Under the pieces are notes generated by a model. It ran no database searches, was not told the origin of the DNA, and saw nothing but the letters and a program-made list of their open reading frames with translations. A DNA stretch of 64,000 nucleotides from NCBI GenBank assembly GCA_044450345.1, contig JBIOIY010000004.1, positions 82,534-146,533 on the forward strand, read 5' to 3'. Below are positions 2,062 through 59,895 of this stretch, piece after piece. This DNA is from Thermodesulfovibrionales bacterium. GTDB lineage: Bacteria > Nitrospirota > Thermodesulfovibrionia > Thermodesulfovibrionales > UBA6898. The position numbers and the translations under genes are program-made. Every line of letters begins with the position of its first letter. Within the stretch, counting starts at the first letter, position 1.

Positions 2062-3840
2062 CTACTGTCCCGGTTTTATCCTGAAGTAGTCCACGATATC
2101 GTCCGGGCCTTCAGCGTTATCGACTACCGGGAAATAGAGGCTGAAGGTAGTTCCTTTTCCGACTTCCGACTGAAGATCAATTGCCCCGCCGTGGGCCTTA
2201 ATAATTCCATAAGACATTGCCAACCCGAGTCCGGTGCCCTTTCCCGATTCCTTTGTAGTAAAGAAGGGGTCGAATATCTTGTCCCGTATCTCTCCGGGTA
2301 TTCCGGTGCCTGCGTCCTGGATCTTGAGTATCGCATATTCCCCGGGTTCCAGAAGGAGCGGGCTTGCAATATTTCTCGTAATCTTCCCGGACGACGTTGA
2401 GATCGTTATGATTCCCCCGTTCGGCATTGCGTCCGATGCATTCACCAGGAGATTCACCAGTATCTGTTCTATCTGGTTGATGTCACCCTTGATGAAGGGG
2501 AAGTTCTCGGCGGCATGAAACACGACCTGGATGTTCTTTTTTGAGAGCATCCTTTCCAGGAGCTCAAGCGTGTCGCTTACGGCATGGTTGAGGTTGAGCA
2601 GCTTCATCTCAACCGAACCCGTACGGGCGAAGCTCAAAAGCTTTGTAACGATGACATGTGCTTTTATCCCGGCCTTCTCGATGATGAGGGCCTTGCTGTG
2701 TATGGACGGGTCAACACCTTCTTCGTCGCTGATCAGCTCTGCATAACCCATGATTTGAGTAAGTATGTTGTTGAAGTCATGCGCAAGTCCTCCTGCGAGG
2801 ATCCCCAAGGATTCCATCTTCTGGGACTGCAGAAGGTGTTCCTGGAGCCTTTTTTTGTCGGTGATATCCCTGTGGAAAGACTGTATGACGATCTGGCGGT
2901 CGATTTCAATTGCCTTAGCACTGACTTCAACAAGCAGCTTTTTCCCGTCCTTTTTGAGGTGTTCTGTCTCAAAGACCAATGCGCTGTCGGCGAGCAGGTT
3001 TTTCATCCTCTCCCGAAAGGCGGCGCTGTTTTCTTCCCCTTCCAGGATGTGTATATTGGTACCTAAGAGGTCGTCCTTTTCGTATCCGTACATAGTGCAG
3101 AGGTTGTTGTTCGCATCGAGTATTGTCCCGTTCTCGTCGAGCACGAGGATCCCGTCGTTTGCATTGTCGAAGAGTTCCTGGAACCTCTTGTTGGAGAGAC
3201 GCAGTTCTTCTGTCCTTGCCCTCACCATATCATCAAGTGCCTCCGCCTGCTTCTCAAGCTTTTTCTTTTCTTCGGCAAGGTCAAACTGGAGCTCTACTGC
3301 CTGTGCGGTAGCTTTTTCGCTGTGACTTCGTAAGGACAGCGCGATTGCAAACGTGGCAAGCAGGAACGCGTTGTTCAGGATAAATGTGGGGATGTCCGTG
3401 ATCGTGTCGAATACAAGTATCGGCACGAGGTAAATCAGATAGATCAGGGACATGCCGAACATCGCTGCGGAGAAGCTAAATGGAAAATATCCAAGGACGC
3501 AGACTATGAGAAGGATCATGCCTGCGTAGTAGGGTGATTTATGGCCGCCGAGGGCCATGATCATGGCCTCGATCGTTATGGCAGACAAGGCGGCGGCAAC
3601 GAAGATGATCACATGCTGGCGTCCGCCGCTCTTCTTCTGATTGAGAATCAGGAGAAAAAGCAAGGCAATTGTTATCGAAACCCTGTATATAAGGAACTGC
3701 GTGAACAACGTAGGGGTATAGAAGTAGTCAAGGACCCCGAGAAGAAGGAACAGGATCGCCCCGAGCACAAGGATCTTGTTTATCCAATGTTGCAGGAGCG
3801 ACAGAAACTGGTCTTTTATATATTCTTTTTTCTCATCCAT
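2062..3840 (-). CDS. Multi-TM PAS sensor histidine kinase (PhcS-like input region)
   Basis: About 5-6 N-terminal TM segments with SPYYAG, a PAS domain, AHDFNN H-box, and NASDAM, DAGTG, FFTTK, GTGLGL boxes; no receiver domain. Confidence 0.9.
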
Positions 3841-3870
3841 GAAATTGCCCTATGAGAGTTCGCGGGGAAA

Positions 3871-5145
3871 TCATCTCACTTCCGTTCCACATAACTCCTT
3901 GCTCACCATAAAAAATAGGATCACGCCTGATTCTTCACGTGCGGTCGCCACGTTCTTTCTCTCTATCCCGGCATCCTCCAGTATTTTCCAGCAGTCGCTC
4001 TCCTGCCTTTGGTAGAAAGCATCCCAGTCCGAGACCCAGTGATAGTCGAACGTCGAGTATCTCTTGCAGTCCTTGAATGAGATTATCATAGTGCCGCCGG
4101 GATTAAGCAATTGGTAAAGCGCCCTGAACATCCTGACAAGGACAGCGCTCTCCAGGTAATCGTAGAGCCCGGTGCTGTAAATAATATCCTGCATGCCGAA
4201 CTCTTTGAGGCTCCTTTCATGGCTTATCATCTTCAGGGCATTATACCTTCTGAAGGTAAAACGGTCCATGGATATCCCCGTTGTAGACAGCCTGGAGGCA
4301 GAGAATGCAAGGGCATCACCGTCGAGGTCGACGCACGTGACATGGGAATTGTTGGCTTCTATGTCAGAGGAGATTTCAACGAGCTCCCTGCAGGAGCCAC
4401 ATGCTATGTCCAGTACTTTTGTTTTTTCATGTTTTCGCAGTTCTTTGAGGAGAAGGTCTTTCAAGGCCTCCTTTCTCCCCCTGACCGCCACTCCAAGCTC
4501 GGTGGAGAGGATGTATCTGTCTATGTAGAACCCTATGCCGGTCGATTGAGGCGTGTTCTTGTAGAACGCTTCAAGCGTTTTGTAGTCGCCCGGATAGCCC
4601 TGGGGCCAGGTGAGTACGCGGCTCCAGAAATAGCTTTTGGCAGAGATCGGATTAGTCCTTCCCCTCAGTTTTTTCTGAGCTTCTTTTATCTGTTTTTTGT
4701 TGTCTCTGTTTTCTTCTTCGAAGAGTTCACAGGCCTTCTTCATATTCATGAAGGTTTGACGGGTCAGCTTCATGACCTCATCCTGATCGTGGCCAGGGAT
4801 CAGACACTTTGCCTCGATGGTTTTCATCTCCGCAAGGAACCGGTCAATAGCGGCGGAAAGGGCTTCGGTCTCGATTGCCTCGAACATTAAGCCCACCCTG
4901 AGCATGGAGTCATTGATACGTTTCGTCCACTTTACTACACCGGCGTAGCTTCCTAAGCTGCTTTCCATCGTAAGTGTGAGACCCGGCTCCAGCGGGAAAT
5001 CGGTCTCGATACCTATCCCCGCCTCACTGAAATCATGAATTCTTCCCTTCACGCAAGTCCCTTTCTCAAGGTGACATTCCACGTCATCCGTAAAGGGTCT
5101 TCTGTAAAAACGTCTCATTTCTTCAACGTTAAATGGATCTCCCAT
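3871..5145 (-). CDS. PilZ-domain class I SAM-dependent methyltransferase, PhcB-like
   Basis: N-terminal RRFYR and DFSEAG PilZ motifs; PQGYPGDY; VLDIACGS SAM motif; STGLYDYL; RBS GAGGAGG. Confidence 0.75.
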   Translation of the reverse strand: MGDPFNVEEMRRFYRRPFTDDVECHLEKGTCVKGRIHDFSEAGIGIETDFPLEPGLTLTMESSLGSYAGVVKWTKRINDSMLRVGLMFEAIETEALSAAIDRFLAEMKTIEAKCLIPGHDQDEVMKLTRQTFMNMKKACELFEEENRDNKKQIKEAQKKLRGRTNPISAKSYFWSRVLTWPQGYPGDYKTLEAFYKNTPQSTGIGFYIDRYILSTELGVAVRGRKEALKDLLLKELRKHEKTKVLDIACGSCRELVEISSDIEANNSHVTCVDLDGDALAFSASRLSTTGISMDRFTFRRYNALKMISHERSLKEFGMQDIIYSTGLYDYLESAVLVRMFRALYQLLNPGGTMIISFKDCKRYSTFDYHWVSDWDAFYQRQESDCWKILEDAGIERKNVATAREESGVILFFMVSKELCGTEVR

Positions 5146-5213
5146 TACTTCCTCCTCAGGGAAATATTTTTTGTCGAACCTTCTCAGAACGAAAGGGGCA
5201 TCACCTCCTCAAA

Positions 5214-5253
5214 CAAAAAAAGCCGCGCTGTATTCTTGCCCTGGCAGCGCGGC
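5214..5253 (-). terminator. Intrinsic terminator inside the 5' leader of the methyltransferase gene
   Basis: Minus strand GCCGCGCTG-N14-CAGCGCGGC followed by T7, about 70 nt upstream of the start codon. Confidence 0.75.
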
Positions 5254-5310
5254 CGTCCGTATGCTGGATGGCGTTCCATCCCTGTTAATAAGGGGTTGGC
5301 TTTATCAGGC
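5241..5310 (-). ncRNA. Candidate degenerate or variant c-di-GMP-I (GEMM-I)-like riboswitch
   Basis: TGATAAAGCCAACCCCT..AGGGATGGAACGCCA..GGACGGCCGCGCTGCC follows the GEMM layout and overlaps the terminator arm, but lacks a GNRA loop and has AAC in place of AAA. Confidence 0.4.
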
Positions 5311-5457
5311 ACTTTTTCCCATGCTTCTTCCTAATTAGGGATACTATACCCCCATTTAATCTGGAATCGCAAGACCTTCGGCAATATCACGGCGCATTCG
5401 CCGACGCCTGAGTTCGTATCCTCTTGTGCGGTGGTAATGTGTTAAAATGAAAGCCTT

Positions 5458-7041
5458 ATGAAAAATGGAAAAGGAGTAGTGTATCTTGTCGGGGCGGGGC
5501 CGGGTGACATCGGCCTGCTGACGGTGAAGGGGCTTAAGTGCCTTCAGAAGGCGGAGGTCGTCATATACGATTTCCATCTGAACGCACAGATACTCAACTA
5601 TATCAGCCACGATGCCGAATTCATATATGCCGGCAAGCGCGGCGGCCACCACACAATGACCCAGGACGAGATAAACACGACCATTGTCGCGAAGGCGAAA
5701 GAGGGAAAAAACGTCTGCCGTCTCAAGGGCGGCGACCCTTTTGTCTTCGGCAGGGGCGGCGAAGAGGCCCAGGTCCTTGTGCGGGAGGGAATCAGGTTCG
5801 AGGTCGTGCCGGGTGTGAGTTCCTCCATTGCCGCACCCGCGTATGCGGGGATCCCTCTTACCCACAGGCTTTACTCGTCCTCGTTTGCAGTTATCCCGGG
5901 CTACGAAGATACCACAAAAGAGGAGTCCTCCATCGATTGGTCGAAGCTTGCGACAGGGGTGGGCACCCTCGTTTTTCTCATGGCGGTCAAAAACATTGGG
6001 GTGCTTACGCAAAAGCTGATGGAGAACGGCCGGGACCCTGATACGCCTGTTGCCGTGATACGGTGGGGCACACGGCCGGATCAAAGGACCCTTCAGGGGA
6101 GACTGAAAGACATAGCCGATCTCGTTTTCGAAAGGGACATAAAACCACCCGCGGTCATGGTCGTCGGCGAAGTCGTGAACCTGAGGCAGGAACTGAAATG
6201 GTACGAATTGAAGCCGATGTTCGGCCACCGGATACTTGTGACCAGGGAGCATGCGGAGGGGTTCGAGGACCTGGAGGAACTCGGCGCGGAAGTCGTCCAG
6301 TTCTCGACGGTCGAGATCGTCCCTCCTCAGTCCTGGGATGGACTCGACGGCTGCATCGAAGGGATAGGCTCATACGATTGGGTGATCTTTACGAGTGCCA
6401 ACGGGGTCAGATATTTCTTCAGCAGGCTTTTTGAGAAAGGTGTCGACATCAGGGATTTGAAAGGCCTGAAGATCTGCGCGATAGGTACTAAGACCGCCGG
6501 TGAGATAAGGAAATTCGGGCTGAAGGTCGACCTGGTCCCCGAGGAATTCAGGGCGGAGGGATTGATAGAGGCCTTTGTAAAAGAAGTAGGGGCGGGGTCA
6601 CCCCGCCCCTACGTATTGAAAGGGACCAGGTTCCTTCTTCCCCGTGCAGAGGTCGCGAGGGAGACATTTCCGGAAAAGGTCCGTGAACTCGGCGGCGTCA
6701 TCGATGTGCCTGTGACCTACAGGGCGGTCAAGCCGGAGTATCACGGCAAAAGGATGAGGCGTTTTCTGAAGGAGGGAAGGATCACCATCGCCACTTTTAC
6801 GAGCGCTGCCACGTTCAATAACTTCATGGAGATCATGGGGGAGGATTCAGACGAACTCCTCAGGAATGTTGCGATAGCCGTCATAGGACCGGTGACTGCA
6901 AACGCCGTTAACAAGGCGGGGCTAAAGGTCGGGATAATGCCGGAGGAGGCGACGGTTGAAGCGATGGTCGAAGAGATAAAGAGATGGGCCGCAGGTAACA
7001 CCCCTCCCGAAAGTTTTCGGGACGCCCCACTCTTAAGATAA
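5458..7041 (+). CDS. cobA: Fused uroporphyrinogen-III C-methyltransferase / uroporphyrinogen-III synthase (CobA-HemD)
   Basis: VYLVGAGPGD and RLKGGDPFVFGRGGEE; C-terminal HemD half with IFTSANGV and FTSA. Confidence 0.95.
   Translation: MKNGKGVVYLVGAGPGDIGLLTVKGLKCLQKAEVVIYDFHLNAQILNYISHDAEFIYAGKRGGHHTMTQDEINTTIVAKAKEGKNVCRLKGGDPFVFGRGGEEAQVLVREGIRFEVVPGVSSSIAAPAYAGIPLTHRLYSSSFAVIPGYEDTTKEESSIDWSKLATGVGTLVFLMAVKNIGVLTQKLMENGRDPDTPVAVIRWGTRPDQRTLQGRLKDIADLVFERDIKPPAVMVVGEVVNLRQELKWYELKPMFGHRILVTREHAEGFEDLEELGAEVVQFSTVEIVPPQSWDGLDGCIEGIGSYDWVIFTSANGVRYFFSRLFEKGVDIRDLKGLKICAIGTKTAGEIRKFGLKVDLVPEEFRAEGLIEAFVKEVGAGSPRPYVLKGTRFLLPRAEVARETFPEKVRELGGVIDVPVTYRAVKPEYHGKRMRRFLKEGRITIATFTSAATFNNFMEIMGEDSDELLRNVAIAVIGPVTANAVNKAGLKVGIMPEEATVEAMVEEIKRWAAGNTPPESFRDAPLLR
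6586..6612. repeat. GTAG-type REP palindrome in frame within the hemD half
   Basis: GTAGGGGCGGGG-TCA-CCCCGCCCCTAC: perfect 12-bp stem, 27 nt, encodes VGAGSPRPY. Confidence 0.9.
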
Positions 7042-8343: not shown

Positions 8344-8460
8344 ATGGCTCAGAAGATACTTGGGGTCGATGACGATATGACCGGTTATTTCATCGAAGAG
8401 CCCTTCAGCATAGAGGCGCTCAGGAAAAAGGGTAAAGAAATATTATATGGGCCTTCCTGA
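8344..8460 (+). pseudogene. Internally deleted response-regulator receiver remnant (38 aa)
   Basis: Manual translation MAQKILGVDDDMTGYFIEEPFSIEALRKKGKEILYGPS: receiver beta1 joined to the beta5-alpha5 end. Confidence 0.65.
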
Positions 8461-10573
8461 AATAGACACTTCCTTATTCCTCCTCATTAACAAAAATCTC
8501 CGGAACGGACTCTTCGATGTAGTGATGCCCTTTGTCTCGAACAATTCGAAGGTCATCTTCCTGCCCCTTCTTCTCTGGATAGTCGTCAGAGAGCGGTCCA
8601 AGGCATTGTCTTACGTGGTGATATCAGTCCTTGCGGTCGCCTTCGCAGACGCAGGAGGAGGGGTCCTGAAGAACCTGATCGCAAGGGTCAGACCGTGTAA
8701 CGCCCTCGAAGGCGTCAATCTTCTCGTGGGGTGCGGAAAATCTTTCTCTATGCCTTCAAACCACGCATCGAACGCCTTTGCATTCGCGATGGCCTTTTGG
8801 TCCCTGCGCAGGGATGTCGTGACCTCCTTCTTTGTCTTTGTCGCCGCAGTTATCGGCATATCGAGGGTGTATGTGGGCGTCCACTACCCCTTCGATGTGG
8901 TTGCGGGCACAGCGCTCGGCACCGGATGCGCATATGGGGCGAGGAGGCTCTTTCGATGGGCATCCGATGTGTACAGACGGAGGGATTACGGCCAGGCCCT
9001 CTTTCTGATGGTCATGGCCTTCAGCCTCTTCCGTATTTATTATATCCTCAGCAGCCCCTTTGACCTTAGCGCCGACGAGGCGCATTACTGGGAATGGGCG
9101 AGGCGGCCCGACTGGAGTTATTATTCGAAAGGCCCGATGATCGCGTACCTGATCTATGCGGGGACAGCGGTCTTCGGCAACACTGTATTCGGCGTAAGGA
9201 TATTCGCGGTCGTCCTATCTGCCTTGAGCAGCGTCGTGCTTTTCAAACTGGGAAAAAGGCTCTACGGCGAGAGGACGGGGCTTCTGGCGGCGCTCCTGGT
9301 CCAGGTGGTCCCCCTTTATTCGGTATACGGAGTTCTCCTGACGATAGACTCCCCTTTCATCTTTTTCTGGATACTTTCGCTCTACCTCTTCTGGAAGGCG
9401 ATCGAAACTAAGCGTGCCGTTGCACCGGCCAGGGTAGACGGTAAAATAGCAGCTCCCCCTTCATCCCCCCCCTTGTCGGAGCGACCCTTCGCGGAGACCC
9501 GCTTCGGGAGAGGAGGGGATGAAGGGGAGGGCGACCGCATTGGCAACTGGATCTTGCTGGGTATTGCGATCGGCCTCGGACTTCTGACGAAGTATACCAT
9601 GGCATTTTTTTATCTTTCCGGTTTGCTCTTCTTTGTCTTTCATAAAGACTCCCGGGAGTTCCTTTACGGCAAAGGGCCGTATATCTCTCTTTTAGTAAGT
9701 CTTATGGTCTTCAGTCCGGTTATCATCTGGAACGCTGCCCACGGCTGGGTTACCCTGAAGCACACTGCGGGACAGGCCCACCTTGCAGACGGTCTTATGA
9801 TCTCGCCAAAAGATTTTTTCGAGTTCCTTGGTTCGCAGGCCGGCGTGATCACCCCCCTTCTTTTCGTGGGTATGTTAGTCGCGCTCTGGAAGATGCGCAA
9901 AGACAGGGCGGGCGCGTTTATATTCTGGTTTTCCGTGCCCGTGGTCCTTTTCTTTGTCCTCAAAAGCTTGCAGGGAAAGGTGCAGGCGAACTGGGCGCTG
10001 CCGGGCTATGCGGCGGGGTTCATAGCATTTTCCGCATACTTTGCCGGAGGCGGGATGCCCTCAAAGGGACGCTCCAAAATACTTCCGGCGCTCGCGGTCC
10101 TGCTGGCTTTTACCCTTACCGCATTCGCTTATTTCCCCTCGGTCCTTCATCTCCCCAGGAAGATGGACCCGACGATGAGACTACTCGGCTGGAAGGAACT
10201 GGGTCAAGAGACGGGCCGGATTTATGAAGGGCTCTCATCACAGGGGCCGGCATTCGTCTTTTCCGACAGCTACCAGATGGCCAGCGAACTCGCCTTTTAT
10301 ATGAAGGGCAACCCGACGACCTACTGTATCAATCTCGGCAGGCGCATGGACCAGTACGACCTCTGGCCGGGCTTCGAAAATTATATAGGCTGCAACGCGC
10401 TCCTGGTGATGGATGATGACCGGGAATTTCCCCAGGAGCTGGCAAAGAGCTTCGGGAGGACCGAGAAAGTGGCGGTCGTCATAACGGTGAGGGGCGACAA
10501 GGTAATGAAATTTACGGTGTTCAAGTGTTATGATTTCAAGGGTATTAAATCCAGGCCCCCGGAGACTTTTTAA
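8447..10573 (+). CDS. PAP2 phosphatase fused to ArnT/PMT-like (GT-C) glycosyltransferase
   Basis: K-x6-RP, PSNH and SRVYVGVHYPFD PAP2 motifs; DEAHYWEW, YYSKGP, LTKYT; many TM helices. Confidence 0.88.
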   Translation: MGLPEIDTSLFLLINKNLRNGLFDVVMPFVSNNSKVIFLPLLLWIVVRERSKALSYVVISVLAVAFADAGGGVLKNLIARVRPCNALEGVNLLVGCGKSFSMPSNHASNAFAFAMAFWSLRRDVVTSFFVFVAAVIGISRVYVGVHYPFDVVAGTALGTGCAYGARRLFRWASDVYRRRDYGQALFLMVMAFSLFRIYYILSSPFDLSADEAHYWEWARRPDWSYYSKGPMIAYLIYAGTAVFGNTVFGVRIFAVVLSALSSVVLFKLGKRLYGERTGLLAALLVQVVPLYSVYGVLLTIDSPFIFFWILSLYLFWKAIETKRAVAPARVDGKIAAPPSSPPLSERPFAETRFGRGGDEGEGDRIGNWILLGIAIGLGLLTKYTMAFFYLSGLLFFVFHKDSREFLYGKGPYISLLVSLMVFSPVIIWNAAHGWVTLKHTAGQAHLADGLMISPKDFFEFLGSQAGVITPLLFVGMLVALWKMRKDRAGAFIFWFSVPVVLFFVLKSLQGKVQANWALPGYAAGFIAFSAYFAGGGMPSKGRSKILPALAVLLAFTLTAFAYFPSVLHLPRKMDPTMRLLGWKELGQETGRIYEGLSSQGPAFVFSDSYQMASELAFYMKGNPTTYCINLGRRMDQYDLWPGFENYIGCNALLVMDDDREFPQELAKSFGRTEKVAVVITVRGDKVMKFTVFKCYDFKGIKSRPPETF
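9453..9529. repeat. Inverted repeat in frame within the GT-C gene
   Basis: CTCCCCCTTCATCCCCCCCC ... AGGAGGGGATGAAGGGGAG arms inside a roughly 40-aa Pro/Gly-rich loop between hydrophobic segments. Confidence 0.8.
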
Positions 10574-15166: not shown

Positions 15167-15212
15167 TAATTATGAAAGCATCTGATTATCTTGCTGACAA
15201 ATGGAGGCGGTC

Positions 15213-15554
15213 ATGAATAGAAGAACTTGTATAATAACGCTGGCAATCGGTTGCCTGCTGGTCCTCTTTGCATCCAGTGCTGTCTTTGCCGCCGTTAAGG
15301 TCAAAGCATCCGGCATAATGACATCTTTAGAAGATGATGGGACAGTCATTATTAAAAAAATAATCAGTATTAACAAAAGTGGTGAGAAGAGCCAGTCGAC
15401 CGGCTATCTGCTGTCTCCGTCAGTCGTTGTCCAGGATCAAAATGGGGGAAGCATATCACTGAATGATATTGCACTGCCTTACAATGTGGATTTTGAATAC
15501 GAATATACGCCAAAGGGCTTTATGATTACCTTGATAAAAAAAGTTGCAGGATAG
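15213..15554 (+). CDS. Small exported protein heading the pilY1 operon
   Basis: GGAGG RBS, signal peptide ending AVFA, beta-rich mature part. Confidence 0.7.
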   Translation: MNRRTCIITLAIGCLLVLFASSAVFAAVKVKASGIMTSLEDDGTVIIKKIISINKSGEKSQSTGYLLSPSVVVQDQNGGSISLNDIALPYNVDFEYEYTPKGFMITLIKKVAG

Positions 15555-15568
15555 ATGGGGGTGATACT

Positions 15569-18500
15569 GTGAAGAGCAGAAAAAATATTCCGGTTGTTGT
15601 AATAGGCGTCTTTCTATGTGCAGTTCTGATGTTGTCTGCCCAGGCAGAGGCCAATCCGCCGTCTCAGAAAGGGTACTGTATCCAGCCGCCTTTTCTTGTG
15701 GCCCCCAAGCAGCCGAATGTCCTCATTATACTGGACAACTCGGGCAGCATGAATTGTCTTGCATACCAAAGCGGATTCGACCCCTCGCAATTCACGAGCG
15801 GCACTTACTACGGATATTTCGATCCGACGAAGAATTATAGATACGATACCTCCAGCAGCACTGCAGCTGCTCCCAACAGATGGATACCGACCAATGCTGC
15901 AATGAACACCGGTACCGTGGCAAATCCGATTGCAAGCGGCAACCTGCTTAACTGGATAACCATGTCCAGGCAAGACATTGCGAAGAAACTCCTGATAGGC
16001 GGCAGGGCGGCTACGGGCATATCTTCCGCCGGTGCATACAATGTTGCTGACCGCACCACGAGCCCGGTGAAGCTGTATGCCGATAGCGACGCGACGTCAG
16101 GCCTTACGTGTACTACTAACGTTAAGTCCAATGACGGCACGGACAAGGTTTGCAGCAATAATAATGCGCAAACCTGTGATGCTGATAGTGACTGTGGCGC
16201 CGGCAACACCTGCAACTATCTCATATACCCTTTTGTCGGCGATTATAAATATACCGTTGCAACCGGCGATACTAACACATTCAGTATAGCGTTCAATGAC
16301 CCGAGCACATTAAAATTGTATCCAAACAGAAATTACCCCGGCAGTAATCCTGCTTATACTTTTCCTAACGCCTGGGTAGTCTCAACAGGGACCCAGGCAA
16401 ATGCGTATCAGACAGTAGACGAAACAACCGCCAATACTACTGACTATATAACAAACAAAACAACAACAGAGCAGGCGTTATTCGATTACGACCGCGCAAA
16501 CGCCGCCCTGCTGGCGGCCTCCGGTACCATCAGCAGTGTCACTGTTCACGCATATGCCAAGAAGACCGGTTCCGCCACTCTGTATCTTCAGGCAGTGATG
16601 TGGATGAATATTCCTCTTTTGCCGGATTCGGTCCAGCCTTCAGGGCTATCGGCATTGACTACGAGTTTCGCCGACATCCCGTTTGACTATCCATTGAATC
16701 CCATAACAGGCGCACCCTGGGACTGGAGCGACTTAACCGGTACTAACTCTGCGACGGGTCCGAACAGGCTGAAGGCCTTCGGTGTCCAGACAATGGGGCC
16801 ATCCAACGCATCACCGACATCTTCTCTCTATGCTACGGTAAGCCAGGTTTACATACAGATAAACGTCTCCTCCCCGCCGGCCGGGGGGCCGTATAAAATT
16901 ATCGTGGATCAGGGGACCACGCCGGCAACAGGGATACTGGATGCCATGAGCACTGAAGTCAGGTTCGGACTGGCCCAATATAATTCCAACGGAGTCGGCG
17001 GGAAGATAGCCGATACCAGCGCAACGACCCCCACCTATGTCAATGCCGGCAATGTCCCGAACATTGTCAAGACGATCAGCAATACAATAGGTGCAAGCAC
17101 TACCCCTCTGGCAGAGACCCTTTATGAAATGGAGAGGTATTTTCGTCAGGATTCAACATATTACAGCTCTGCAGACTATACAAAAGGCTGCGCCACTGCC
17201 CTAAATGGGACTTCTAACTGTACAGGTCAAAGCGTCAACACCAATGACCCATATTTTTATGGGGGTTCTATTAATCAATATGTGCCTTGTACCCAGTCAT
17301 ATGTCCTCTTGTTGACTGACGGGGAATCCTATAGCGATACGGCCCTTCCCTCAACTACGCCGGCATCGCCCTACGCTCCCTGTTCCCTTACGAATATAAA
17401 GGGGTGTTCGGGTGCGGGAACTTTGCCCCGTCCCACCAGATTTGGCGGGACCACGATCGGACAGACTTATACCGGTTCAGGCTCGGATTATCTGATTGAT
17501 GTGGCATACTGGGGAAGGACAAACGACATGCGTACCGGGGCAACTGATCTGCCGACCAACTGGCAGCAAGGGCTCCCGAAAACCCAGAACATCTACCTTT
17601 ACACGGTCTTCCTCTTCGGCAGCGGTTCTACGCTCCTGCAGGACGCTGCAATTTACGGCGGGTTCCAGGACATTAACGGCAACAATCAGCCTGACTGTAC
17701 GACAAAGCCCGAGGAATGCTATCGGGACAGCAATGGTGACGGCCATATTTATTCCGTAAGGCATCGTTTCTGCACAAATGAGGCACCCACCTTTGCCACA
17801 ACCTGCTTAACTGACGCTAACTGCACTGCGGGCGGGACCTGTCTTGACCCGGATGCTCCCATTACCTATTACGAGGGCGATGACGGTTATAAACTGCAGG
17901 CGAGCATAACGGCCGCCCTTACCGAAATATTGAAGAGGGCGGCGTCGGGGACCGCGGCCTCGGTTCTGGCCTCAGGACAGGGTAGCGGAGCCAACCTGCT
18001 GCAAGCCATCTTTTACCCCAAGCGGTCCATAAGCGGCCAATCTGATATTATGTGGACCAGCACGCTCCAGAACCTCTGGTATTATATCAATCCCAGTTCA
18101 TCATCCGCGAGCACTATCAGGGAGAACACAGCGGATACAGGCTCAATCTATGAACTGAACCTCGATAAAGACAACATCATCAACTTTTTCTTTGACGATA
18201 CAACTCAAATGACCAAGGCGAACCTCTTCGCTGATGCAAATGGCGACGGCGTTGCCGACAGTACGATCCCTACTGCGGTTGTCGATGGGACAGCTGTCAA
18301 GAACCTGTGGGAGGCAGGGTTGATGCTCTGGAACACAAGTGCCGATAGCAGAAAGATCTATACGAACGTGACCGACACCTATGCTGCGACAACAACTGCG
18401 TTTGCCGGAATGACGGAGTTCAAAACAGCGAATCTCACCGGCACCACTCCCACGCTCCAGAGCCTGTTGAACACAGACTATACAGTTGGGACCGGGATCG

Positions 18501-20863
18501 GCCAAAGGACGGCTGCGAATAATACGACAGTCGCACAAAATATAATCAACTATGTCCGGGGTACTGATATCGCTCCTGTCACATTGACGACTCCGACGGA
18601 GACCATTTCTTACAGGTCCAGATCAACCGCTATTGACTTGAGCAGCCCGCCAAACGGTACGGTCACCGATACATATACGATCAACGGGGCAACCTGGAGT
18701 GAGGCCAGCAAGGTCTGGAAGCTGGGTGACATCATCGATTCGACCCCGCGCGTGGCATCCTGGATACCCCTGAACAAATACGACACATGGTACGGAGACG
18801 GCCCCTATTCCACATTTATCGGAACATCGACATACCAAGGCAGGGGCATGGTGTTTACAGGAGCCAACGACGGCATGCTCCATGCATTCAAACTCGGCAC
18901 CCTTGATCCGCTATCGGTGTGCAAGGGCACAACGACTTCCTGTTTTTCTGACGCTGACTGCGTCGGGGTTGGGGGTGGCGTGTGCATACGGGCCCAGAAC
19001 ATCTCAGGGTTCATCAAGGCAAGGCTCTGCGAGGACGCCAACGGAAACGGCAAATGCGAGCCGTCTGAGACCACCAAAAGCAACCTGGGCAAAGAACAAT
19101 GGGCGTTTATACCTAAAAGTGCCCTGCCGTATCTGCAGTATCTTTCCAACCCGGATTATTGCCATCTCTACTATGTCGATGCCACCTCTTATTTATTTGA
19201 TGCAAGCATAGAGGCGCCCGGCGTCCATCCAACCGATTACTGGACTCAGACCAAAAAGGTCATGTGCGGATCAAATCAACCGTGCACCCCCACCAATAAT
19301 ACGCTTGACCTGGCCAATTCAAGCTGGAGATCGATACTGATCGGCGGCATGAGGCTCGGCGGCGCCTGCAGCGGTCCCAGCTATTGCAAGCTGATCGCCT
19401 CACCTTTTACAGTAACGACGACGATATGCAGTGATGATGCCGACTGCGCGACCGGATACAGCTGTGCAAAAACAGCGAATACGGTCGGAGCGCCTGCAAC
19501 TAATCTAGGGTATTCGTCATATTTTGCCCTTGATGTCACTGATCCCTCTGCGCCGCAGCTGATGTGGGAATTTACAAATCCTAACCTCGGCGCTGCATCG
19601 AGCGGCGCGGCGGTTGTAAAAATACAAGCCAGGACTTCAACCGGGACTTCGAGCATGACTGATGCTGGTGCGGACAAGATCAAGAGAAACGGAAAGTGGT
19701 TTGCCGTCATTGCATCCGGCCCCACCGGCCCGGTGGGGAATTCACTGTTCAAAGGCTTTTCCAACCAGAACCTCAGACTCTTTGTCCTTGACCTGAAAAC
19801 AGGGACCCTGCTCCGTACCATAGATACCGGAATAGCAAATGCTTTTGGCGGTTCCATGACCAATGCAACTGTTGATTGGGATCTCGATTACCAGGATGAC
19901 GCCTTGTACCTTGGCTATACTAAATCGGAAGACGCGACACCTTCGGGCACCACGGCCTGGACCAAGGGCGGAGTGCTCCGTCTTATCACCAGGGAGGACC
20001 TGAGCGGCAATGATGTATCAACTACCGGCAACACTGCGCTGAACCCGGCAAACTGGCTTGTGACCAAGGTCATTGACAACATCGGTCCGGTGACCTCTGC
20101 GATCGGGCATCTTGTCCATTATCCTTTTTCTGCGGCGCCTAATTTTTCGGCGAATAACACGCCTCCTGACAAGGCGTACATCTACTTCGGCTCGGGTCGT
20201 TATTTTTACCCTTTCGATGATACTGCGAACCAGCGGGCGCTATATGGTGTGGTCGAGCCCTGCCTTTCCAAAAATCGTCCTTCAGGTGGCGACTGGACGG
20301 GATTCACTACGACCGATACAACCGTAGCGCCGGTATGTGACGACAATGGCGGGACGCCTGTGACCTGCCTTACCACGTCGACCCCTCCGGCAAAGGACTT
20401 CTTCTCTCCGGCGAGCTGCCTGACGGACGCGACTTTAAGTTCAACTCTGACCAGTGCGCCGAATGGATGGTATATAAACCTCGATACCCCGGCAGGAACA
20501 CTGTACAGTGAACGGGTGATCACCGACCCGCTCGCCGCGAAGAGCGGGGTTGTCTTTTTCACTACCTTCTCTCCGGATACGGATATCTGCGCCTATGGCG
20601 GCAACACTAGTCTATGGGCCGTCCAATTTGACACTGGCGGCGCCGTCGGTGACAAAATTGAGGGTATGGGATTGCTGCAGGTGTCGACCGGCGCTATTGC
20701 GGAGGTCAACCTGGGCGCCCGTTTCGGCGATAAGACTGACGTAAGTCACAAGTTAGGCCGGAGGACCACCTCCATAGAGGGAGTGCCGCCTTCAGGCCAG
20801 GGGCTCGCGGTGATACTTGCTCCGCCGCCGGTCGATACATTTGTTCATATAAGAAAAAAATGA
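15569..20863 (+). CDS. pilY1: Type IV pilus tip adhesin PilY1/PilC-like (1764 aa)
   Basis: Signal peptide, vWA ILDNSGSM/TPLAE/LTDG, WKLGDIIDSTP, GANDGMLHAF, EQWAFIP, YYVD, FALDVTDP. Confidence 0.9.
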   Translation: MKSRKNIPVVVIGVFLCAVLMLSAQAEANPPSQKGYCIQPPFLVAPKQPNVLIILDNSGSMNCLAYQSGFDPSQFTSGTYYGYFDPTKNYRYDTSSSTAAAPNRWIPTNAAMNTGTVANPIASGNLLNWITMSRQDIAKKLLIGGRAATGISSAGAYNVADRTTSPVKLYADSDATSGLTCTTNVKSNDGTDKVCSNNNAQTCDADSDCGAGNTCNYLIYPFVGDYKYTVATGDTNTFSIAFNDPSTLKLYPNRNYPGSNPAYTFPNAWVVSTGTQANAYQTVDETTANTTDYITNKTTTEQALFDYDRANAALLAASGTISSVTVHAYAKKTGSATLYLQAVMWMNIPLLPDSVQPSGLSALTTSFADIPFDYPLNPITGAPWDWSDLTGTNSATGPNRLKAFGVQTMGPSNASPTSSLYATVSQVYIQINVSSPPAGGPYKIIVDQGTTPATGILDAMSTEVRFGLAQYNSNGVGGKIADTSATTPTYVNAGNVPNIVKTISNTIGASTTPLAETLYEMERYFRQDSTYYSSADYTKGCATALNGTSNCTGQSVNTNDPYFYGGSINQYVPCTQSYVLLLTDGESYSDTALPSTTPASPYAPCSLTNIKGCSGAGTLPRPTRFGGTTIGQTYTGSGSDYLIDVAYWGRTNDMRTGATDLPTNWQQGLPKTQNIYLYTVFLFGSGSTLLQDAAIYGGFQDINGNNQPDCTTKPEECYRDSNGDGHIYSVRHRFCTNEAPTFATTCLTDANCTAGGTCLDPDAPITYYEGDDGYKLQASITAALTEILKRAASGTAASVLASGQGSGANLLQAIFYPKRSISGQSDIMWTSTLQNLWYYINPSSSSASTIRENTADTGSIYELNLDKDNIINFFFDDTTQMTKANLFADANGDGVADSTIPTAVVDGTAVKNLWEAGLMLWNTSADSRKIYTNVTDTYAATTTAFAGMTEFKTANLTGTTPTLQSLLNTDYTVGTGIGQRTAANNTTVAQNIINYVRGTDIAPVTLTTPTETISYRSRSTAIDLSSPPNGTVTDTYTINGATWSEASKVWKLGDIIDSTPRVASWIPLNKYDTWYGDGPYSTFIGTSTYQGRGMVFTGANDGMLHAFKLGTLDPLSVCKGTTTSCFSDADCVGVGGGVCIRAQNISGFIKARLCEDANGNGKCEPSETTKSNLGKEQWAFIPKSALPYLQYLSNPDYCHLYYVDATSYLFDASIEAPGVHPTDYWTQTKKVMCGSNQPCTPTNNTLDLANSSWRSILIGGMRLGGACSGPSYCKLIASPFTVTTTICSDDADCATGYSCAKTANTVGAPATNLGYSSYFALDVTDPSAPQLMWEFTNPNLGAASSGAAVVKIQARTSTGTSSMTDAGADKIKRNGKWFAVIASGPTGPVGNSLFKGFSNQNLRLFVLDLKTGTLLRTIDTGIANAFGGSMTNATVDWDLDYQDDALYLGYTKSEDATPSGTTAWTKGGVLRLITREDLSGNDVSTTGNTALNPANWLVTKVIDNIGPVTSAIGHLVHYPFSAAPNFSANNTPPDKAYIYFGSGRYFYPFDDTANQRALYGVVEPCLSKNRPSGGDWTGFTTTDTTVAPVCDDNGGTPVTCLTTSTPPAKDFFSPASCLTDATLSSTLTSAPNGWYINLDTPAGTLYSERVITDPLAAKSGVVFFTTFSPDTDICAYGGNTSLWAVQFDTGGAVGDKIEGMGLLQVSTGAIAEVNLGARFGDKTDVSHKLGRRTTSIEGVPPSGQGLAVILAPPPVDTFVHIRKK

Positions 20864-21420
20864 GGAATAACCGGGGTGTCACATTGGTCGAGCTGCTGGT
20901 GGTTATTTCTATAATAGCCATACTTGCCGTGGCCCTCGGTTTTACCTACCAGGGATGGCAGGGCAGCTTCAAGGTCGAAAATGCGGTGAAACAACTCCAT
21001 GCAGATTTGATGACTGCCAGGACACTGGCAATGTCGACGAAAGTAGCATACATTGTCGATTTTCCTACAGCGACTTCATACGAAATCAGGACTTGGAATG
21101 ATACAAACAGCGACGGCAAAATCGATGCTGCTGAGATCACGGGCCTGCCCGCATTCCCGGTCCCGAAGACTTTGCAGTATCCAGTGCCGGCCGGCATCGT
21201 CGGCGTACTTTACATCTTCGATCAGCAGGGGCTTATATCCTCGGGTAATCTCGGTAATCCGCCGGTCCTCATCGACCCGGAAAATCCTCCTGTTATCATA
21301 AATCCTCCGGTTAAAATATTCCTTACCTCCACGAATACTCCGGATTACGACTGCATTACAATGTCCCAGTCAAGGATAAATATCGGGCTTATGGCCGCAG
21401 GAGTCTGCAATGCAAAATAG
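20860..21420 (+). CDS. fimU: Minor pilin FimT/FimU-like
   Basis: Class III leader RG|VTLVELLVV, C-terminal Cys pair, position in the cluster. Confidence 0.8.
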   Translation: MRNNRGVTLVELLVVISIIAILAVALGFTYQGWQGSFKVENAVKQLHADLMTARTLAMSTKVAYIVDFPTATSYEIRTWNDTNSDGKIDAAEITGLPAFPVPKTLQYPVPAGIVGVLYIFDQQGLISSGNLGNPPVLIDPENPPVIINPPVKIFLTSTNTPDYDCITMSQSRINIGLMAAGVCNAK

Positions 21421-21886
21421 AGGACTGAATCAGAAAGGGGTCACGCTTGTCGAGGTGCTGATCTCACTGGTGATACTTCTGATCGTCTTTATGGGGCTTA
21501 TCCAGGCGTCTATCTTGAGCATTAACCACAACCTCCGCAATGCGATGAGGGACGAGGCCGTCAGGATCGCCTCTGAATATATGTCAATGGCCAGATCGAC
21601 TGCTAATATTGACAAGATAGCAGGGGCGCAATCTGCCGTTAATTTATGCCCGGCTGTGTTTACTGCTGCAGCGCCGCTATCCACTACTATAAACAGGGGA
21701 ATCAGAAATATCAATCAGCAATTTATTGTTACAACGACGGGTTGTTATACAGATGCTACGTATAGTATTGCAGAGGCCACAGTAACTGTTAACTATATAT
21801 ACCCGGAACAGCCCACTGCCGACCTTCTCGACCCCAACAAAAGGCAGACAACGAGTGCGAATTCGCGGGTGAAAAGAAGACTATGA
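21410..21886 (+). CDS. pilV: Minor pilin PilV-like
   Basis: KG|VTLVEVLISL prepilin motif; position in the cluster. Confidence 0.8.
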   Translation: MQNRGLNQKGVTLVEVLISLVILLIVFMGLIQASILSINHNLRNAMRDEAVRIASEYMSMARSTANIDKIAGAQSAVNLCPAVFTAAAPLSTTINRGIRNINQQFIVTTTGCYTDATYSIAEATVTVNYIYPEQPTADLLDPNKRQTTSANSRVKRRL

Positions 21887-23115
21887 TGAGTAAAAGACAA
21901 AATCGGCCTGTCTGCCGGTCTCAGGGCGGACCCGTCCTCCGTCAGTCCGGAGGATTCACATTGGTTGAGCTGATGATTACCATGATAATATTTATACTGG
22001 CGATCACTGCCGCATCCCAGATATTCGTGGGGCTGCTGACCCAGTTCAAACAGCAGAGCAAGATCGCCGAGACGAATATTGAGGGTGTCATTGGACTCGA
22101 ACTGCTGAGGGCCGACATCGAGCAGGCGGGCTTTGGACTGCCCAGGGACATGAACGGGGTTACCTATGTCGAAGCGGTTAACGATCAGGCGACATGGTGG
22201 AACACGCCGTCTCCTGACGCTCGCACTGGCTATAACGATAATAACAATCCGCCGAGGGCTATAGTAATTGGGCCCCAAAACGGAATGAACAACTCTGATA
22301 TCCTTGTTGTCAAGGCAACGAATGTTGCAACAAGCGATGCTGCGCATAAATCGACTTATGTTGCGGATGACGGCAGTATTCAAACCACGGGTTCTGCGAA
22401 GGAAGACCTGTTAAATACAGATTGGGTTATTGCCTTGTTCCCGGACCTTACAGGGATGCCGACGGTGCTTTTAAATGGCGGAGTTCAATTCACATTCAAC
22501 GGAACACCCCCCGTAACAACTGCCCGGTTAGGGGCCGCTCCCGGTACAATAAACCTTGTATATGGAATCAGCCCGGCCGGTCCCCTGCGGATGCCTTTTA
22601 ACCGGGCCGATTATTACATCAGGCGGCCTACGACGGCCGGAAGTATGCCGGCCAGATGCGCGCCGGGGACAGGGGTTTTATACAAGGCAACACTTAACCA
22701 CGCTGACGGCAAGCATTCAGAAATGCCCCTGCTGGACTGTGTAGTGGATATGCAGGTGGTTTTTGGATTGGATACGAATGGAGATAAAGTGGCCGATTTT
22801 TTTGGAGATATCCCAGTCGGTTATACTGCCCAGCAGATAAGGGACCAGGTCATTGACGTTCGTGTCTATATAGTCGCCCAGGAGGGACAAATTGACACGA
22901 CATATACATATAAAAATTCGGTTCGTGGTCCAGATGCTCTCTGCGATGTTGATAGCGTGGTCTGCATTAACTATACCAATAGTAATACTGGTGCTCAGGT
23001 TTATTATAAAGCTGTTGACGTTAGTGCGTTGCCGGGAATTGGGACGGGATGGAAGAACTACAGGTGGAAATTATATACATTGGTGGCGAAGCCGTATTTC
23101 AGTCTGCAGCAATGA
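21883..23115 (+). CDS. pilW: Minor pilin PilW-like
   Basis: GG|FTLVELMI, LRADIEQAGFG, DMQVVFGLDTNGD. Confidence 0.82.
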   Translation: MMSKRQNRPVCRSQGGPVLRQSGGFTLVELMITMIIFILAITAASQIFVGLLTQFKQQSKIAETNIEGVIGLELLRADIEQAGFGLPRDMNGVTYVEAVNDQATWWNTPSPDARTGYNDNNNPPRAIVIGPQNGMNNSDILVVKATNVATSDAAHKSTYVADDGSIQTTGSAKEDLLNTDWVIALFPDLTGMPTVLLNGGVQFTFNGTPPVTTARLGAAPGTINLVYGISPAGPLRMPFNRADYYIRRPTTAGSMPARCAPGTGVLYKATLNHADGKHSEMPLLDCVVDMQVVFGLDTNGDKVADFFGDIPVGYTAQQIRDQVIDVRVYIVAQEGQIDTTYTYKNSVRGPDALCDVDSVVCINYTNSNTGAQVYYKAVDVSALPGIGTGWKNYRWKLYTLVAKPYFSLQQ

Positions 23116-31174: not shown

Positions 31175-31810
31175 GTGACTATGGAAGACACATTAACAGT
31201 AACAGCTGCAGCAAAGCGTCTTGGAGTTACAGTGAAGACTATGCAGCGGTGGGAACGAGAGGAGCGACTGGTTCCAGCAGGGCGGACAGCAACTAATCGC
31301 CGTGTTTACACAGCGGGACAGCTTTCAAAATATCAAGGTATGCGGCTTGCTGGCGGTCAAGAGGCAACAAGGGCAATCGCCTACTGTCGAGTATCGAGCA
31401 CGACACAGAAACCGGATCTTCGTAATCAGCGACGGGTGCTGGAAGATTTTTGCGTTGCAAAAGGCATGGCAAATGTCGAATTCATTGAGGAAGTGGGCGG
31501 AGGTCTGAATTTCAAACGCAAGCGATTTCTTCAGTTGATGGACGACATAGGAGCACGACAGGTCAAGATTCTGGTGCTTGCGCATCGAGACCGTCTAACC
31601 CGATTCGGGTTCGAATGGTTTGAGCATTATGCGCGACATAATGGGTGCGAGGTTCTGGTGCTTAATCAGGAAAGGCTTTCACCGGAGCAGGAAATGGTGA
31701 AGGACCTTATGACCATCATCCATTGTTTTTCTTCAAGGGTGTATGGGTTGAGAAACTACAAAAAAAAGTTAAAGGAAGCACTGGAGCAGGACAAACAGAA
31801 TGAGGCGTAA
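31175..31810 (+). CDS. tnpA: IS607 transposase (MerR-like HTH + serine recombinase)
   Basis: AAKRLGVTVKTMQRWE HTH, YCRVSS, HRDRLTRFGF, FSSRVYGLR. Confidence 0.93.
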   Translation: MTMEDTLTVTAAAKRLGVTVKTMQRWEREERLVPAGRTATNRRVYTAGQLSKYQGMRLAGGQEATRAIAYCRVSSTTQKPDLRNQRRVLEDFCVAKGMANVEFIEEVGGGLNFKRKRFLQLMDDIGARQVKILVLAHRDRLTRFGFEWFEHYARHNGCEVLVLNQERLSPEQEMVKDLMTIIHCFSSRVYGLRNYKKKLKEALEQDKQNEA

Positions 31811-58878: not shown

Positions 58879-59895
58879 CTATCTTCCTTCCCGCCCAGGA
58901 AAAAATTGCTCGATCTTCTTCGCGATATATACTTCATAGGCAACTACAAATTCGACATTCATGGGACAGGCCCTTCTCACTTCCACCCGGATATTCGGGT
59001 CCTGGGGTTGGGATGTTGCCACTACAAGGATATCGCTTCCCTTTGTCTCCACAGGGATTACTTCCCACTTTTTCACCACCTCTTCGGGCAGGATTGTGGC
59101 GATGTCAGCGGTTATCTCCACCTCTGAAAGGTCGATCCAGGGGCAACTAAACTGCGTCGCCAGCGCTATGCAGATGTCGCTCGGGGTCAGGAATTTAAGC
59201 TCTACCAGGATCTGTCCCAGCTTCTTCTTTTTCTGTTCATGCTGGACGTTAAGCGCGATGTCAAGTTGTCCGGCCGTAATATATCCTGCCTCCAGAAGTA
59301 TCTGCCCCAGCATCTTCGGGCTTTTCTTTTGCTTCTCGATAGATTCATTCAGTTGATGGTCGGTTATGATGTTCTGTTCCTTCAGTATCGTTCCTATTTT
59401 TTTCTCCCTCATCTCCTTCTGCCTCTGCAGGGCCGCATCGAGCTGCTCCTCGGTAATCTTCTTGTGGTCGATCAGGACCTTTCCGAAAAGCTTAAGGGTT
59501 TCGACGTGCTTTACGGCATGGGCATTGATGAAAATCCGCACGCTCTTATCAGCGGGATTGATGGGGACGATAAAGAACCCTGTATCGTTGGGGTTATACT
59601 TATTCGTAGACCCATGGACGATGGTACCGTCCGTGAATTCAACAATCAGTCTCATTGCCAGGGCTCCCGCAAAAACGGACTGGTCTATAGTCTCCGTGCG
59701 AAGATTAGAGCCCCCCGGCTCCTCTTTTTTGAGAAAAAGGACCTCCTTGACCGAATTTATCCTTTCAGTGGAAGTCAAGGTCTTCCCATCTTTGTCTTCA
59801 ACCTGAAGGTGAAAGGCCGGCTGATTGATATTAAAGGCGAGGACATTGCCTGTCTTTTCTTTCCCGTCTAAATACTTTACGATGACCTTAGCCAT
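58879..59895 (-). CDS. MshEN/T2SSE_N-domain protein lacking an ATPase domain
   Basis: Four (L/I/F)G-x2-L-x5-(I/L)T motif copies and a C-terminal PilB-N-like region; no Walker A. Confidence 0.8.
   Translation of the reverse strand: MAKVIVKYLDGKEKTGNVLAFNINQPAFHLQVEDKDGKTLTSTERINSVKEVLFLKKEEPGGSNLRTETIDQSVFAGALAMRLIVEFTDGTIVHGSTNKYNPNDTGFFIVPINPADKSVRIFINAHAVKHVETLKLFGKVLIDHKKITEEQLDAALQRQKEMREKKIGTILKEQNIITDHQLNESIEKQKKSPKMLGQILLEAGYITAGQLDIALNVQHEQKKKKLGQILVELKFLTPSDICIALATQFSCPWIDLSEVEITADIATILPEEVVKKWEVIPVETKGSDILVVATSQPQDPNIRVEVRRACPMNVEFVVAYEVYIAKKIEQFFPGREGR

Follow-up and report, generated by a model that had tools for sequence, protein, structure and literature searches.

A PilZ-fused methyltransferase of the PhcB superfamily encoded beside a PhcS-type sensor kinase in a Thermodesulfovibrionales genome

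The gene pair and its products

The stretch of DNA considered here (the window: 64,000 nt of contig JBIOIY010000004.1 from a Thermodesulfovibrionales bacterium) carries on its minus strand a methyltransferase gene and, downstream of it across a 30-nt gap, a sensor histidine kinase gene, whose products are homologous to the two halves of the PhcB-PhcS signalling pair. In Ralstonia, as described in passages of two papers, PhcB makes the methyl ester of 3-hydroxypalmitic acid (3-OH PAME) or of 3-hydroxymyristic acid (3-OH MAME), a compound that the kinase PhcS is believed to perceive (PMC7694676, PMC13532016). The original prediction for this locus had described two open reading frames (ORFs) with this separation and a set of motifs; the coordinates and the exact spacer (3841-3870) were verified, all of the quoted motifs (RxxxR, DxSxxG, WPQGYPGDY, AVRGR and SPYYAG) were located in the translations, and the domains were confirmed by Pfam. 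The motif and domain features of the pair are far beyond chance. They are arranged as follows:

3871..5145, minus strand: methyltransferase gene with PilZ domain, 424 amino acids (aa), PhcB-like superfamily (ORF, Pfam, homologues and AlphaFold2 model)
4831..5115, minus strand: PilZ domain, residues 11-105 (Pfam PF07238, E 5.1e-9)
4438..4830, minus strand: helical linker or cap, residues about 106-236 (helices of the model and the signatures WPQGYPGDY and AVRGR)
3898..4437, minus strand: Rossmann-fold catalytic core binding S-adenosylmethionine (SAM), residues about 237-416 (Pfam and Foldseek)
3841..3870, minus strand: intergenic spacer of 30 nt, from the methyltransferase stop to the kinase ATG
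2062..3840, minus strand: sensor histidine kinase gene, 592 aa (ORF, Pfam and MASE8-bearing relatives)
3316..3840, minus strand: membrane sensor domain, residues 1-175, six predicted transmembrane (TM) segments (hydropathy and hidden Markov model, HMM)
2857..3186, minus strand: cytoplasmic PAS domain, residues 219-328 (Pfam PAS_9, E 7.9e-18)
2125..2799, minus strand: HisKA (348-407) and HATPase_c (452-572) core (Pfam)
5146..5457, minus strand: region 5' of the pair, candidate promoter (weak consensus match at 5372-5343)

No terminator-like site was found in the 30-nt spacer, and the two genes are probably co-transcribed. The candidate promoter match agrees with the consensus at 9 of 12 positions and carries no functional weight.

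Inspection of the methyltransferase shows an N-terminal PilZ domain that scores 36.8 bits against the Pfam model (cut-off 22.5) and contains both signature motifs, RxxxR as RRFYRR at residues 11-16 (R11/R12 and R15/R16) and DxSxxG as DFSEAG at residues 38-43 (D38-G43), separated by the canonical spacing of 22 residues. In an AlphaFold2 model computed from a 26-sequence alignment (A1; mean per-residue confidence, pLDDT, of 87.6) this region forms six β-strands at residues 15-88, and the RxxxR motif lies ahead of them on an N-terminal arm of low confidence. The above-threshold match, the β-barrel fold and the two canonically spaced motifs establish its membership in the PilZ family, and its sequence predicts that it binds cyclic di-GMP (c-di-GMP). 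The following helices of the cap (92-236 in the model) carry the signatures WPQGYPGDY (residues 180-188) and AVRGR (219-223), and W180, P181, G183, G186, D187 and R224 are invariant in alignment A1. The C-terminal part is modelled as a Rossmann fold with strands and helices at 243-415, retains a conserved LDIACGSCRE motif in A1, and is matched at residues about 189-384 by the Methyltransf_25/31/12/11 models of Pfam; this combination of a Rossmann fold with a glycine-rich SAM-binding motif is that of a class I SAM-dependent methyltransferase. Foldseek searches with the model returned 3ocj as the top match, followed by small-molecule methyltransferases, including SAM-bound structures, with E values down to 1.5e-12. 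Sequence searches of the PDB found no close solved relative, and NCBIfam holds no model naming either the methyltransferase or the kinase.

The kinase has six TM segments within residues 23-168 by hydropathy scan, and its membrane domain displays two signatures, LDY...P...F...R and GGHxSPYYAG, the SPYYAG core of which spans residues 102-107. Behind the PAS domain, the HisKA (E 3.6e-6) and HATPase_c (E 1.6e-23) matches, together with readable H, N, G1, F and G2 boxes, including GTGLGL, identify the protein as a histidine kinase. The overall architecture is a six-TM domain of the PhcS type (MASE8-like) followed by PAS, HisKA and HATPase_c, with no receiver domain. A word-indexed search with the first 210 residues matched 34 proteins, all of them listed, of which most are hybrids of about 715 aa with the order membrane domain, PAS, histidine kinase, receiver, while one (P0154, 443 aa) has a PhcS-like architecture. 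Many of these relatives carry the Pfam domain MASE8 (PF20968; for example P0123, 28.3 bits against a cut-off of 26.2). The same model does not reach the window kinase's own domain at E<=1 and matches the PhcS-like comparator kinase introduced below weakly (17.6 bits); the window sensor domain is better captured by a family-specific HMM built in this analysis.

Conservation of the pair and homology to the two Phc halves

The expectation that the gene pair would recur in other genomes was borne out by a survey of gene order around the best 80 of 129 confirmed relatives from a genome scan, all at most 53% identical to the window enzyme. A kinase of the same type lies downstream on the same strand in 46 of the 80 loci: directly adjacent in 15, mostly with gaps below 150 nt; 1.1 kb away in one; and 4.2-7.1 kb away, beyond an intervening cassette, in 30. 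The remaining 34 loci, in which no such kinase was seen, include 22 with less than 3 kb of downstream sequence and eight that are cut at 3.2-5.9 kb, inside the cassette. The last four have about 8 kb: one ends in the cassette, two are fragmented assemblies and one truly lacks the kinase. Hence, where at least 7.9 kb of downstream sequence is available, the kinase is present in 40 of 44 loci, and on these loci the pairing is conserved across Nitrospirota. As in the Phc system, the putative synthase and sensor genes are neighbours on the same strand with the synthase first.

These counts bear on the notion that an unrelated methyltransferase and an orphan kinase merely happen to be neighbours, a notion to which the missing partner response regulator and the unrelated housekeeping genes around the pair might lend some credence. 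The linkage, however, persists in those 40 of 44 informative loci, in two arrangements and down to about 40% identity, and the pairing recurs in Betaproteobacteria. Because the synteny survey contradicts it, chance adjacency can be considered excluded, with a negligible residual probability.

The methyltransferase belongs to a large superfamily, as judged from the thousands of matches in an exhaustive search of 1.84 billion representative sequences: 3601 at E<=1e-3, 1587 at E<=1e-10 and 177 at E<=1e-30. A word-indexed search matched 335 proteins, and among the best 120 that were listed, organism names, where given, are Nitrospirota, Thermodesulfovibrionales or Nitrospinae. The family occurs in a longer form that includes the PilZ region (about 426 aa) and a shorter one that lacks it (about 350 aa). 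Among the best 150 representatives 52 are at least 420 aa long, and 28 of the 30 of these put through Pfam have an N-terminal PilZ domain; of 97 family members whose N-terminus is long, 84 have both PilZ motifs, canonically spaced. This pattern argues that the fusion is under selection, and, on the sequences compared, an N-terminal PilZ domain fused to this type of methyltransferase is a widespread architecture. Further variants among the proteins P0275-P0422 include one with a receiver domain ahead of PilZ and methyltransferase (P0414) and one with two PilZ domains (P0394). The literature searched contains no description of a PilZ-methyltransferase fusion, and the retrieved passages of a survey of PilZ proteins (preprint 10.1101/814665) do not mention one.

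Comparisons with PhcB and PhcS were made against Paraburkholderia and Cupriavidus orthologues, which stand in for Ralstonia's own sequences. No Ralstonia record was matched by tblastn in a plasmid collection, neither Ralstonia nor Cupriavidus appeared among the best 80 of the 129 confirmed relatives of the window enzyme, and Ralstonia was absent from the best 120 of 2833 relatives of the Paraburkholderia enzyme in a protein search. The tblastn search did identify an operon on a Paraburkholderia graminis plasmid encoding a methyltransferase of 468 aa, a histidine kinase of 445 aa and response regulators of 134 and 344 aa. It is taken as a phcBS(R)Q orthologue because of the length of 464-468 aa given for Ralstonia PhcB in a passage of PMC7694676 and the conservation of phcBSRQ in Cupriavidus stated in a passage of PMC2864759. 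The 120 listed relatives of its methyltransferase are 64-92% identical to it (68-69% for those of Cupriavidus); among them are sequences of Cupriavidus, Massilia, Pseudoduganella and Paraburkholderia that measure 444-522 aa (most 460-470) and in several cases bear the extracellular factor (EF)/3-OH-PAME product name.

On the kinase side, the window membrane domain is 29% identical over 184 aa to that of the Paraburkholderia PhcS-like kinase (BLASTP, E 1e-14). An HMM of 45 sequences (the window domain and 44 from related loci) retrieves this kinase (L081:6905-8242) with 75.3 bits and E 2.8e-19 at Z=1e6 over HMM positions 26-205, and the six TM segments fall at matching positions in the two proteins. 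In an alignment of 47 sequences, D38, R53, S102 and G107 are present in all rows, and P43, F49, G99, Y105, A106, Y137 and D145 in 42-46, being identical in the PhcS-like row, where the window's SPYYAG reads SLFYAG. The N-terminal membrane domain is thus a homologous six-helix domain in both kinases. The architectures differ behind it: the PhcS-like comparator, lacking both PAS and receiver domains, joins the membrane domain directly to HisKA-HATPase, whereas the window kinase has an added PAS domain between them and most of its relatives carry a receiver domain as well.

On the methyltransferase side, the window and Paraburkholderia enzymes are 23% identical over 287 aa (BLASTP, E 5e-17). Profiles of the two families (A1 against A2) align by hhalign with 98.9% probability and E 2e-17; the 275 aligned columns begin at the cap and reach the C-terminus. 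The WPQGYPGDY/AVRGR region corresponds to KPLGYAGDY and AHRNR of the betaproteobacterial PhcB orthologues, so that the two groups have in common the methyltransferase core and a pre-Rossmann helical cap with GYxGDY and AxRxR signatures; the models of both enzymes also share the uncharacterised 3ocj as their best PDB neighbour.

Other superfamily members were seen in different company. On a plasmid of Pseudanabaena sp. PCC 7367 (L084:4085-6704), the gene for a methyltransferase relative of 280 aa converges on genes for a sensor kinase and a response regulator; the membrane region of that kinase has LDY and RYYAG motifs and is matched weakly by the sensor HMM (17.6 bits, E 9.6e-7 on 7 targets). 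Plasmids of Roseateles, Rhizobium etli (p42e) and Nitratireductor (L082:2406-5714, L085:1415-4714 and L086:1640-4912) encode a more distant member of roughly 347 aa divergent to a GGDEF-EAL protein of roughly 660 aa with a multi-helix N-terminus, which compares with the kinase sensor domain at E 0.002-0.11 by hmmsearch (only 7 targets) and 16.8% by hhalign.

A proposed circuit and its alternatives

The reading favoured here, by a modest balance of the evidence, is that the two genes form a Phc-type small-molecule circuit consisting of a c-di-GMP-gated maker of a methylated lipid signal and its membrane sensor. The methyltransferase would draw a hydrophobic carboxylic substrate, probably derived from a fatty acid, out of fatty-acid synthesis and methylate it with SAM, yielding a methyl ester able to permeate membranes or a comparable lipid-like compound. 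The PilZ domain, with both c-di-GMP-binding motifs kept, would tie synthesis to the cellular c-di-GMP level. The kinase would detect the compound inside the membrane through its six-helix PhcS-type domain, the PAS domain adding a second, cytoplasmic input, and would then autophosphorylate and hand the phosphate to a response regulator encoded elsewhere. The steps that go beyond architecture, homology, motifs and linkage are taken over from published work on PhcB and PhcS; it is by this analogy that we infer the substrate class, the sensing of the enzyme's product by the kinase and the action of the compound between cells.

Several observations weigh against this proposal. As had been predicted, no cognate response regulator adjoins the pair; none occurs among the 45 other ORFs scanned in the window, and a LysR family protein is likewise missing among them. 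Counterparts of PhcR, PhcQ and PhcA are absent from the 64 kb, so that neither the PhcR/PhcQ regulators that lie downstream in the Phc system nor its LysR-type PhcA output is represented. The window contains no fatty-acid genes near the pair, and no c-di-GMP-metabolising gene adjoins it. The model system is itself less than settled, as passages of PMC13532016 state that Ralstonia PhcS is only thought to bind the ligand directly and that deletion of phcS alone leaves the phenotypes unabolished. In the published passages on PhcB and PhcS, perception is also said to be shared with another kinase.

A further objection concerns the enzyme, which groups away from PhcB in the HMM and phylogeny comparison. 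In a FastTree analysis of 155 methyltransferase cores (7 of 162 rows having been dropped for short coverage), the six betaproteobacterial PhcB orthologues fall outside a supported clade (98) of 144 representatives that includes the window enzyme, although they sit on a long branch and the tool warns that long branches meet there. Against the core HMM of the window family, the PhcB orthologues score 63-78 bits, as against 57-68 for the Rhizobium-type enzymes, 84 for the Pseudanabaena enzyme and 127 for a methyltransferase domain embedded in a polyketide synthase (PKS) on an Enterobacter plasmid. The 1587 clusters that match the window enzyme at E<=1e-10 compare with only about 1e-7 for PhcB by rough estimate. 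The scores and the tree placement indicate that the window enzyme is a member of the PhcB-containing superfamily and not a PhcB orthologue; in sequence terms, PhcB lies outside a large, mostly PilZ-fused sister group to which the window enzyme belongs. The prediction of a Phc-related module for making and sensing a signal thus stands in that both genes are homologous to the phcB and phcS halves and lie in the same order. It lacks support in that the enzyme groups apart from PhcB, PhcR, PhcQ and PhcA are missing from the window, and the kinase has a PAS domain that PhcS proper does not possess.

The breadth of the superfamily also leaves room for a different chemistry, since its members occur in a PKS module and beside GGDEF-EAL proteins. 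The pair might then comprise a c-di-GMP effector acting on another metabolite, such as a polyketide-like intermediate, with a kinase that regulates the expression of the enzyme and does not sense its product. The 3601 representatives at E<=1e-3, the PKS-embedded domain that outscores PhcB on the family HMM, and structural neighbours that include C- and O-methyltransferases with many substrates would all accommodate this. However, the co-inherited sensor domain is specifically of the PhcS type in both Nitrospirota and Betaproteobacteria, the Pseudanabaena plasmid pairs a related enzyme with an LDY/RYYAG kinase, and the cassette of the derived clade is of fatty-acid type, so this alternative appears unlikely. 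A methyltransferase acting on protein, for instance on the kinase itself in a CheR-like manner under c-di-GMP control, is rated as decidedly improbable. It draws on weak matches to the CheR model in relatives (the L081 enzyme at E 0.0011, also P0288 and P0296) and on the Pseudomonas aeruginosa PilZ protein MapZ, which binds the methyltransferase CheR according to passages of preprint 10.1101/814665. These CheR matches, however, do not reach the cut-off and cover no more than the general SAM-binding region, small-molecule enzymes give the best matches by profile and by fold, and PhcB is itself described, in the source passages available, as a small-molecule signal synthase.

The conserved cassette that separates the methyltransferase gene from that of a PhcS-like hybrid kinase in 30 loci (L001:9312-14608, L053:9138-14613, L057 and L066 among them) encodes a FabG-like ketoreductase, a FabF-like ketosynthase, a FabZ-like dehydratase, a second FabF-like ketosynthase, an acyl carrier protein and a CrtI-family FAD oxidoreductase, to which some loci add a CMAS/DVU_1556-like methyltransferase. 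The cassette probably makes a special lipid, and its position between the two genes points to a lipid-derived ligand or substrate. An IQ-TREE quick tree (92 rows, with the PhcB orthologues as root) places all cassette-linked enzymes in one clade (61 rows, SH-aLRT 100) nested in a grade of loci in which the two genes are adjacent, and the window enzyme with P0001-P0005 in a separate supported clade (100) within that grade. This nesting suggests, tentatively because the root is on a long branch, that the two-gene form is the older arrangement. The related loci are often preceded by genes for NfeD, an SPFH/Band-7 protein and a DedA/VTT-family protein (L001:5753-7927, L008:2815-3525, L011:15621-17241) and often followed convergently by FabH and PlsX. 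A Tll0287-like sensor kinase gene was also seen just 5' of the methyltransferase gene in L019, L027, L053 and L075.

Housekeeping of membrane lipids would account for the NfeD/SPFH/DedA and FabH/PlsX neighbours no less well than signalling would, and this counts as a further point against the signalling circuit. In a homeostatic role, the enzyme would methylate an envelope lipid or special fatty acid, the kinase would monitor the membrane or lipid intermediates, and c-di-GMP would link envelope remodelling to lifestyle. This accords with those neighbours, with the ketoreductase/ketosynthase/dehydratase/acyl carrier protein/CrtI-like cassette of the 30 loci and with a gene of the cyclopropane-fatty-acid-synthase family just 5' of the Paraburkholderia phcB-like gene. 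Conversely, the sole characterised relatives of both proteins, in the passages available on them, make and sense a diffusible signal; the pair occurs without lipid genes in the window and in the other loci of the adjacent type, which form the basal grade in the tree; and the conserved neighbourhood among related metagenome-assembled genomes may be simple inheritance. Lipid homeostasis is regarded as a contender of rather low probability.

The PilZ fusion further invites a look at the N-terminus of PhcB itself. The PhcB orthologues (P0205 and others, alignments A2 and A3) begin with a domain of about 100 residues that shows neither a Pfam match nor PilZ motifs and may be a decayed PilZ-like β domain devoid of the c-di-GMP motifs; the evidence is weak and mixed. 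The domain has the same place and size as PilZ in the 28 of 30 long relatives, and its nearest named ESM-atlas clusters are PilZ, with a score of 0.83 that serves as a lead only. The PhcB model places six strands at residues 10-85 followed by helices, at a pLDDT of 56-68 and from an input alignment that included PilZ fusions, and MAFFT aligns its GTI(I/V)NLQRKS with the ...NLSxxG region of PilZ. A comparison of the PilZ region of the window family with the N-terminus of the PhcB orthologues by hhalign gave no signal (E 0.25-0.83), so the idea depends on the weaker leads from the ESM atlas, the model and the MAFFT alignment. It offers a hypothesis for an otherwise unexplained domain, to whose region the adaptive PhcB change R22C maps, reported as lying outside the methyltransferase domain in a passage of PMC6989110.

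A more sweeping version of the c-di-GMP-gated circuit can be offered as a speculative possibility. The PilZ-fused PhcB-like methyltransferase and the PhcS-type kinase might represent an unrecognised, phylum-spanning class of circuits in which c-di-GMP directly gates the synthesis of a lipid-derived signal, extracellular or in the membrane. On this view the window, with its two genes, would show the core in ancestral-looking form, a cassette for a bespoke signal would have been inserted in one Nitrospirota clade, and Ralstonia PhcB would be derived, its N-domain being a PilZ that has decayed and no longer binds c-di-GMP.

The rest of the window is ordinary chromosome, with a DinG/YoaA-type helicase gene 3' of the kinase and, elsewhere, genes for CobA-HemD, DnaE, UvrC, LepA, riboflavin and purine synthesis and Rnf. 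Additional features recorded in it are:

5458-7041, plus strand: uroporphyrinogen-III C-methyltransferase fused to HemD
8447-10573, plus strand: PAP2 phosphatase domain fused to a PMT_2-type glycosyltransferase
15201-23115, plus strand: type IV pilus minor-pilin cluster, with a 1764-aa PilY1-like protein, two pilins with the N-methyl motif and a PilW-like protein
31175-33152, plus strand: mobile element in a housekeeping region, with a recombinase of the MerR-HTH/resolvase type and, after it, an IS605-family OrfB/TnpB-like protein that carries a Cas12f-like TNB domain
58879-59895, minus strand: protein with MshEN (a known c-di-GMP-binding module), DUF4388 and DUF6982, a possible c-di-GMP receptor 54 kb from the pair

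No tRNA genes and no Rfam families at gathering score were found in positions 1-64000, nor did the stretch preceding the riboflavin genes (44.7-47.1 kb), a common site of FMN riboswitches, give an Rfam match.

Comparison with known systems

To our knowledge, the Phc system belongs to the small number of quorum-sensing chemistries outside the acyl-homoserine lactone and autoinducer-2 types, and such signals are not known in Nitrospirota, a phylum important in nitrification and sulfate reduction. The occurrence of both linked halves in Nitrospirota and Thermodesulfovibrionales genomes would extend Phc-type signalling to that phylum, and the cassette-bearing relatives provide a route to the structure of the ligand. 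The literature searched yielded no paper that connects phcB with Nitrospirota or PhcB with a PilZ domain; one paper mentions only the pilus gene pilZ. The pair is probably a lipid-type signalling circuit that has not been studied before. Its similarity to PhcB is not invisible, as some homologues already bear the PhcB product name through automatic annotation: among the 120 listed relatives of the enzyme, 17 are called 'extracellular factor (EF) 3-hydroxypalmitic acid methyl ester biosynthesis protein' by the pipeline of one source.

Set against the Phc system itself, the pair has the same gene order, with the methyltransferase directly 5' of a membrane histidine kinase, and departs from it in several respects. 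At 23% identity its enzyme belongs to a different clade of the superfamily. It bears a canonical PilZ domain with c-di-GMP motifs where the PhcB orthologues have a β-rich N-domain without motifs or a Pfam PilZ match. Further, PhcR, PhcQ and PhcA belong to the Phc system and have no counterparts nearby in the window. The hosts differ as well: the phc cluster is described in a passage of PMC10653808 as largely restricted to Betaproteobacteria, whereas the window host is apparently of the phylum Nitrospirota.

The logic of a synthase gene placed beside that of a multi-helix membrane kinase sensing a lipid-like signal is common to the α-hydroxyketone systems CqsA-CqsS of Vibrio and LqsA-LqsS of Legionella. 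In CqsS it is the multi-helix membrane domain of the kinase that detects the lipid-like signal. The synthases CqsA and LqsA depend on pyridoxal phosphate, in contrast to the methyltransferase of the window, and the likeness is one of logic. LqsA, LqsS and LqsR are described in passages of PMC10653808.

With regard to c-di-GMP, two precedents are described in passages of preprint 10.1101/814665: in the cellulose synthase BcsA a fused PilZ domain acts in cis on the enzyme, and the PilZ protein of MapZ-CheR does so in trans, its target being a methyltransferase. The window protein differs from both in having its PilZ domain fused N-terminally to a predicted small-molecule methyltransferase, which it may gate, and this intact domain provides a testable link between intracellular c-di-GMP and a lipid signal in or outside the membrane.

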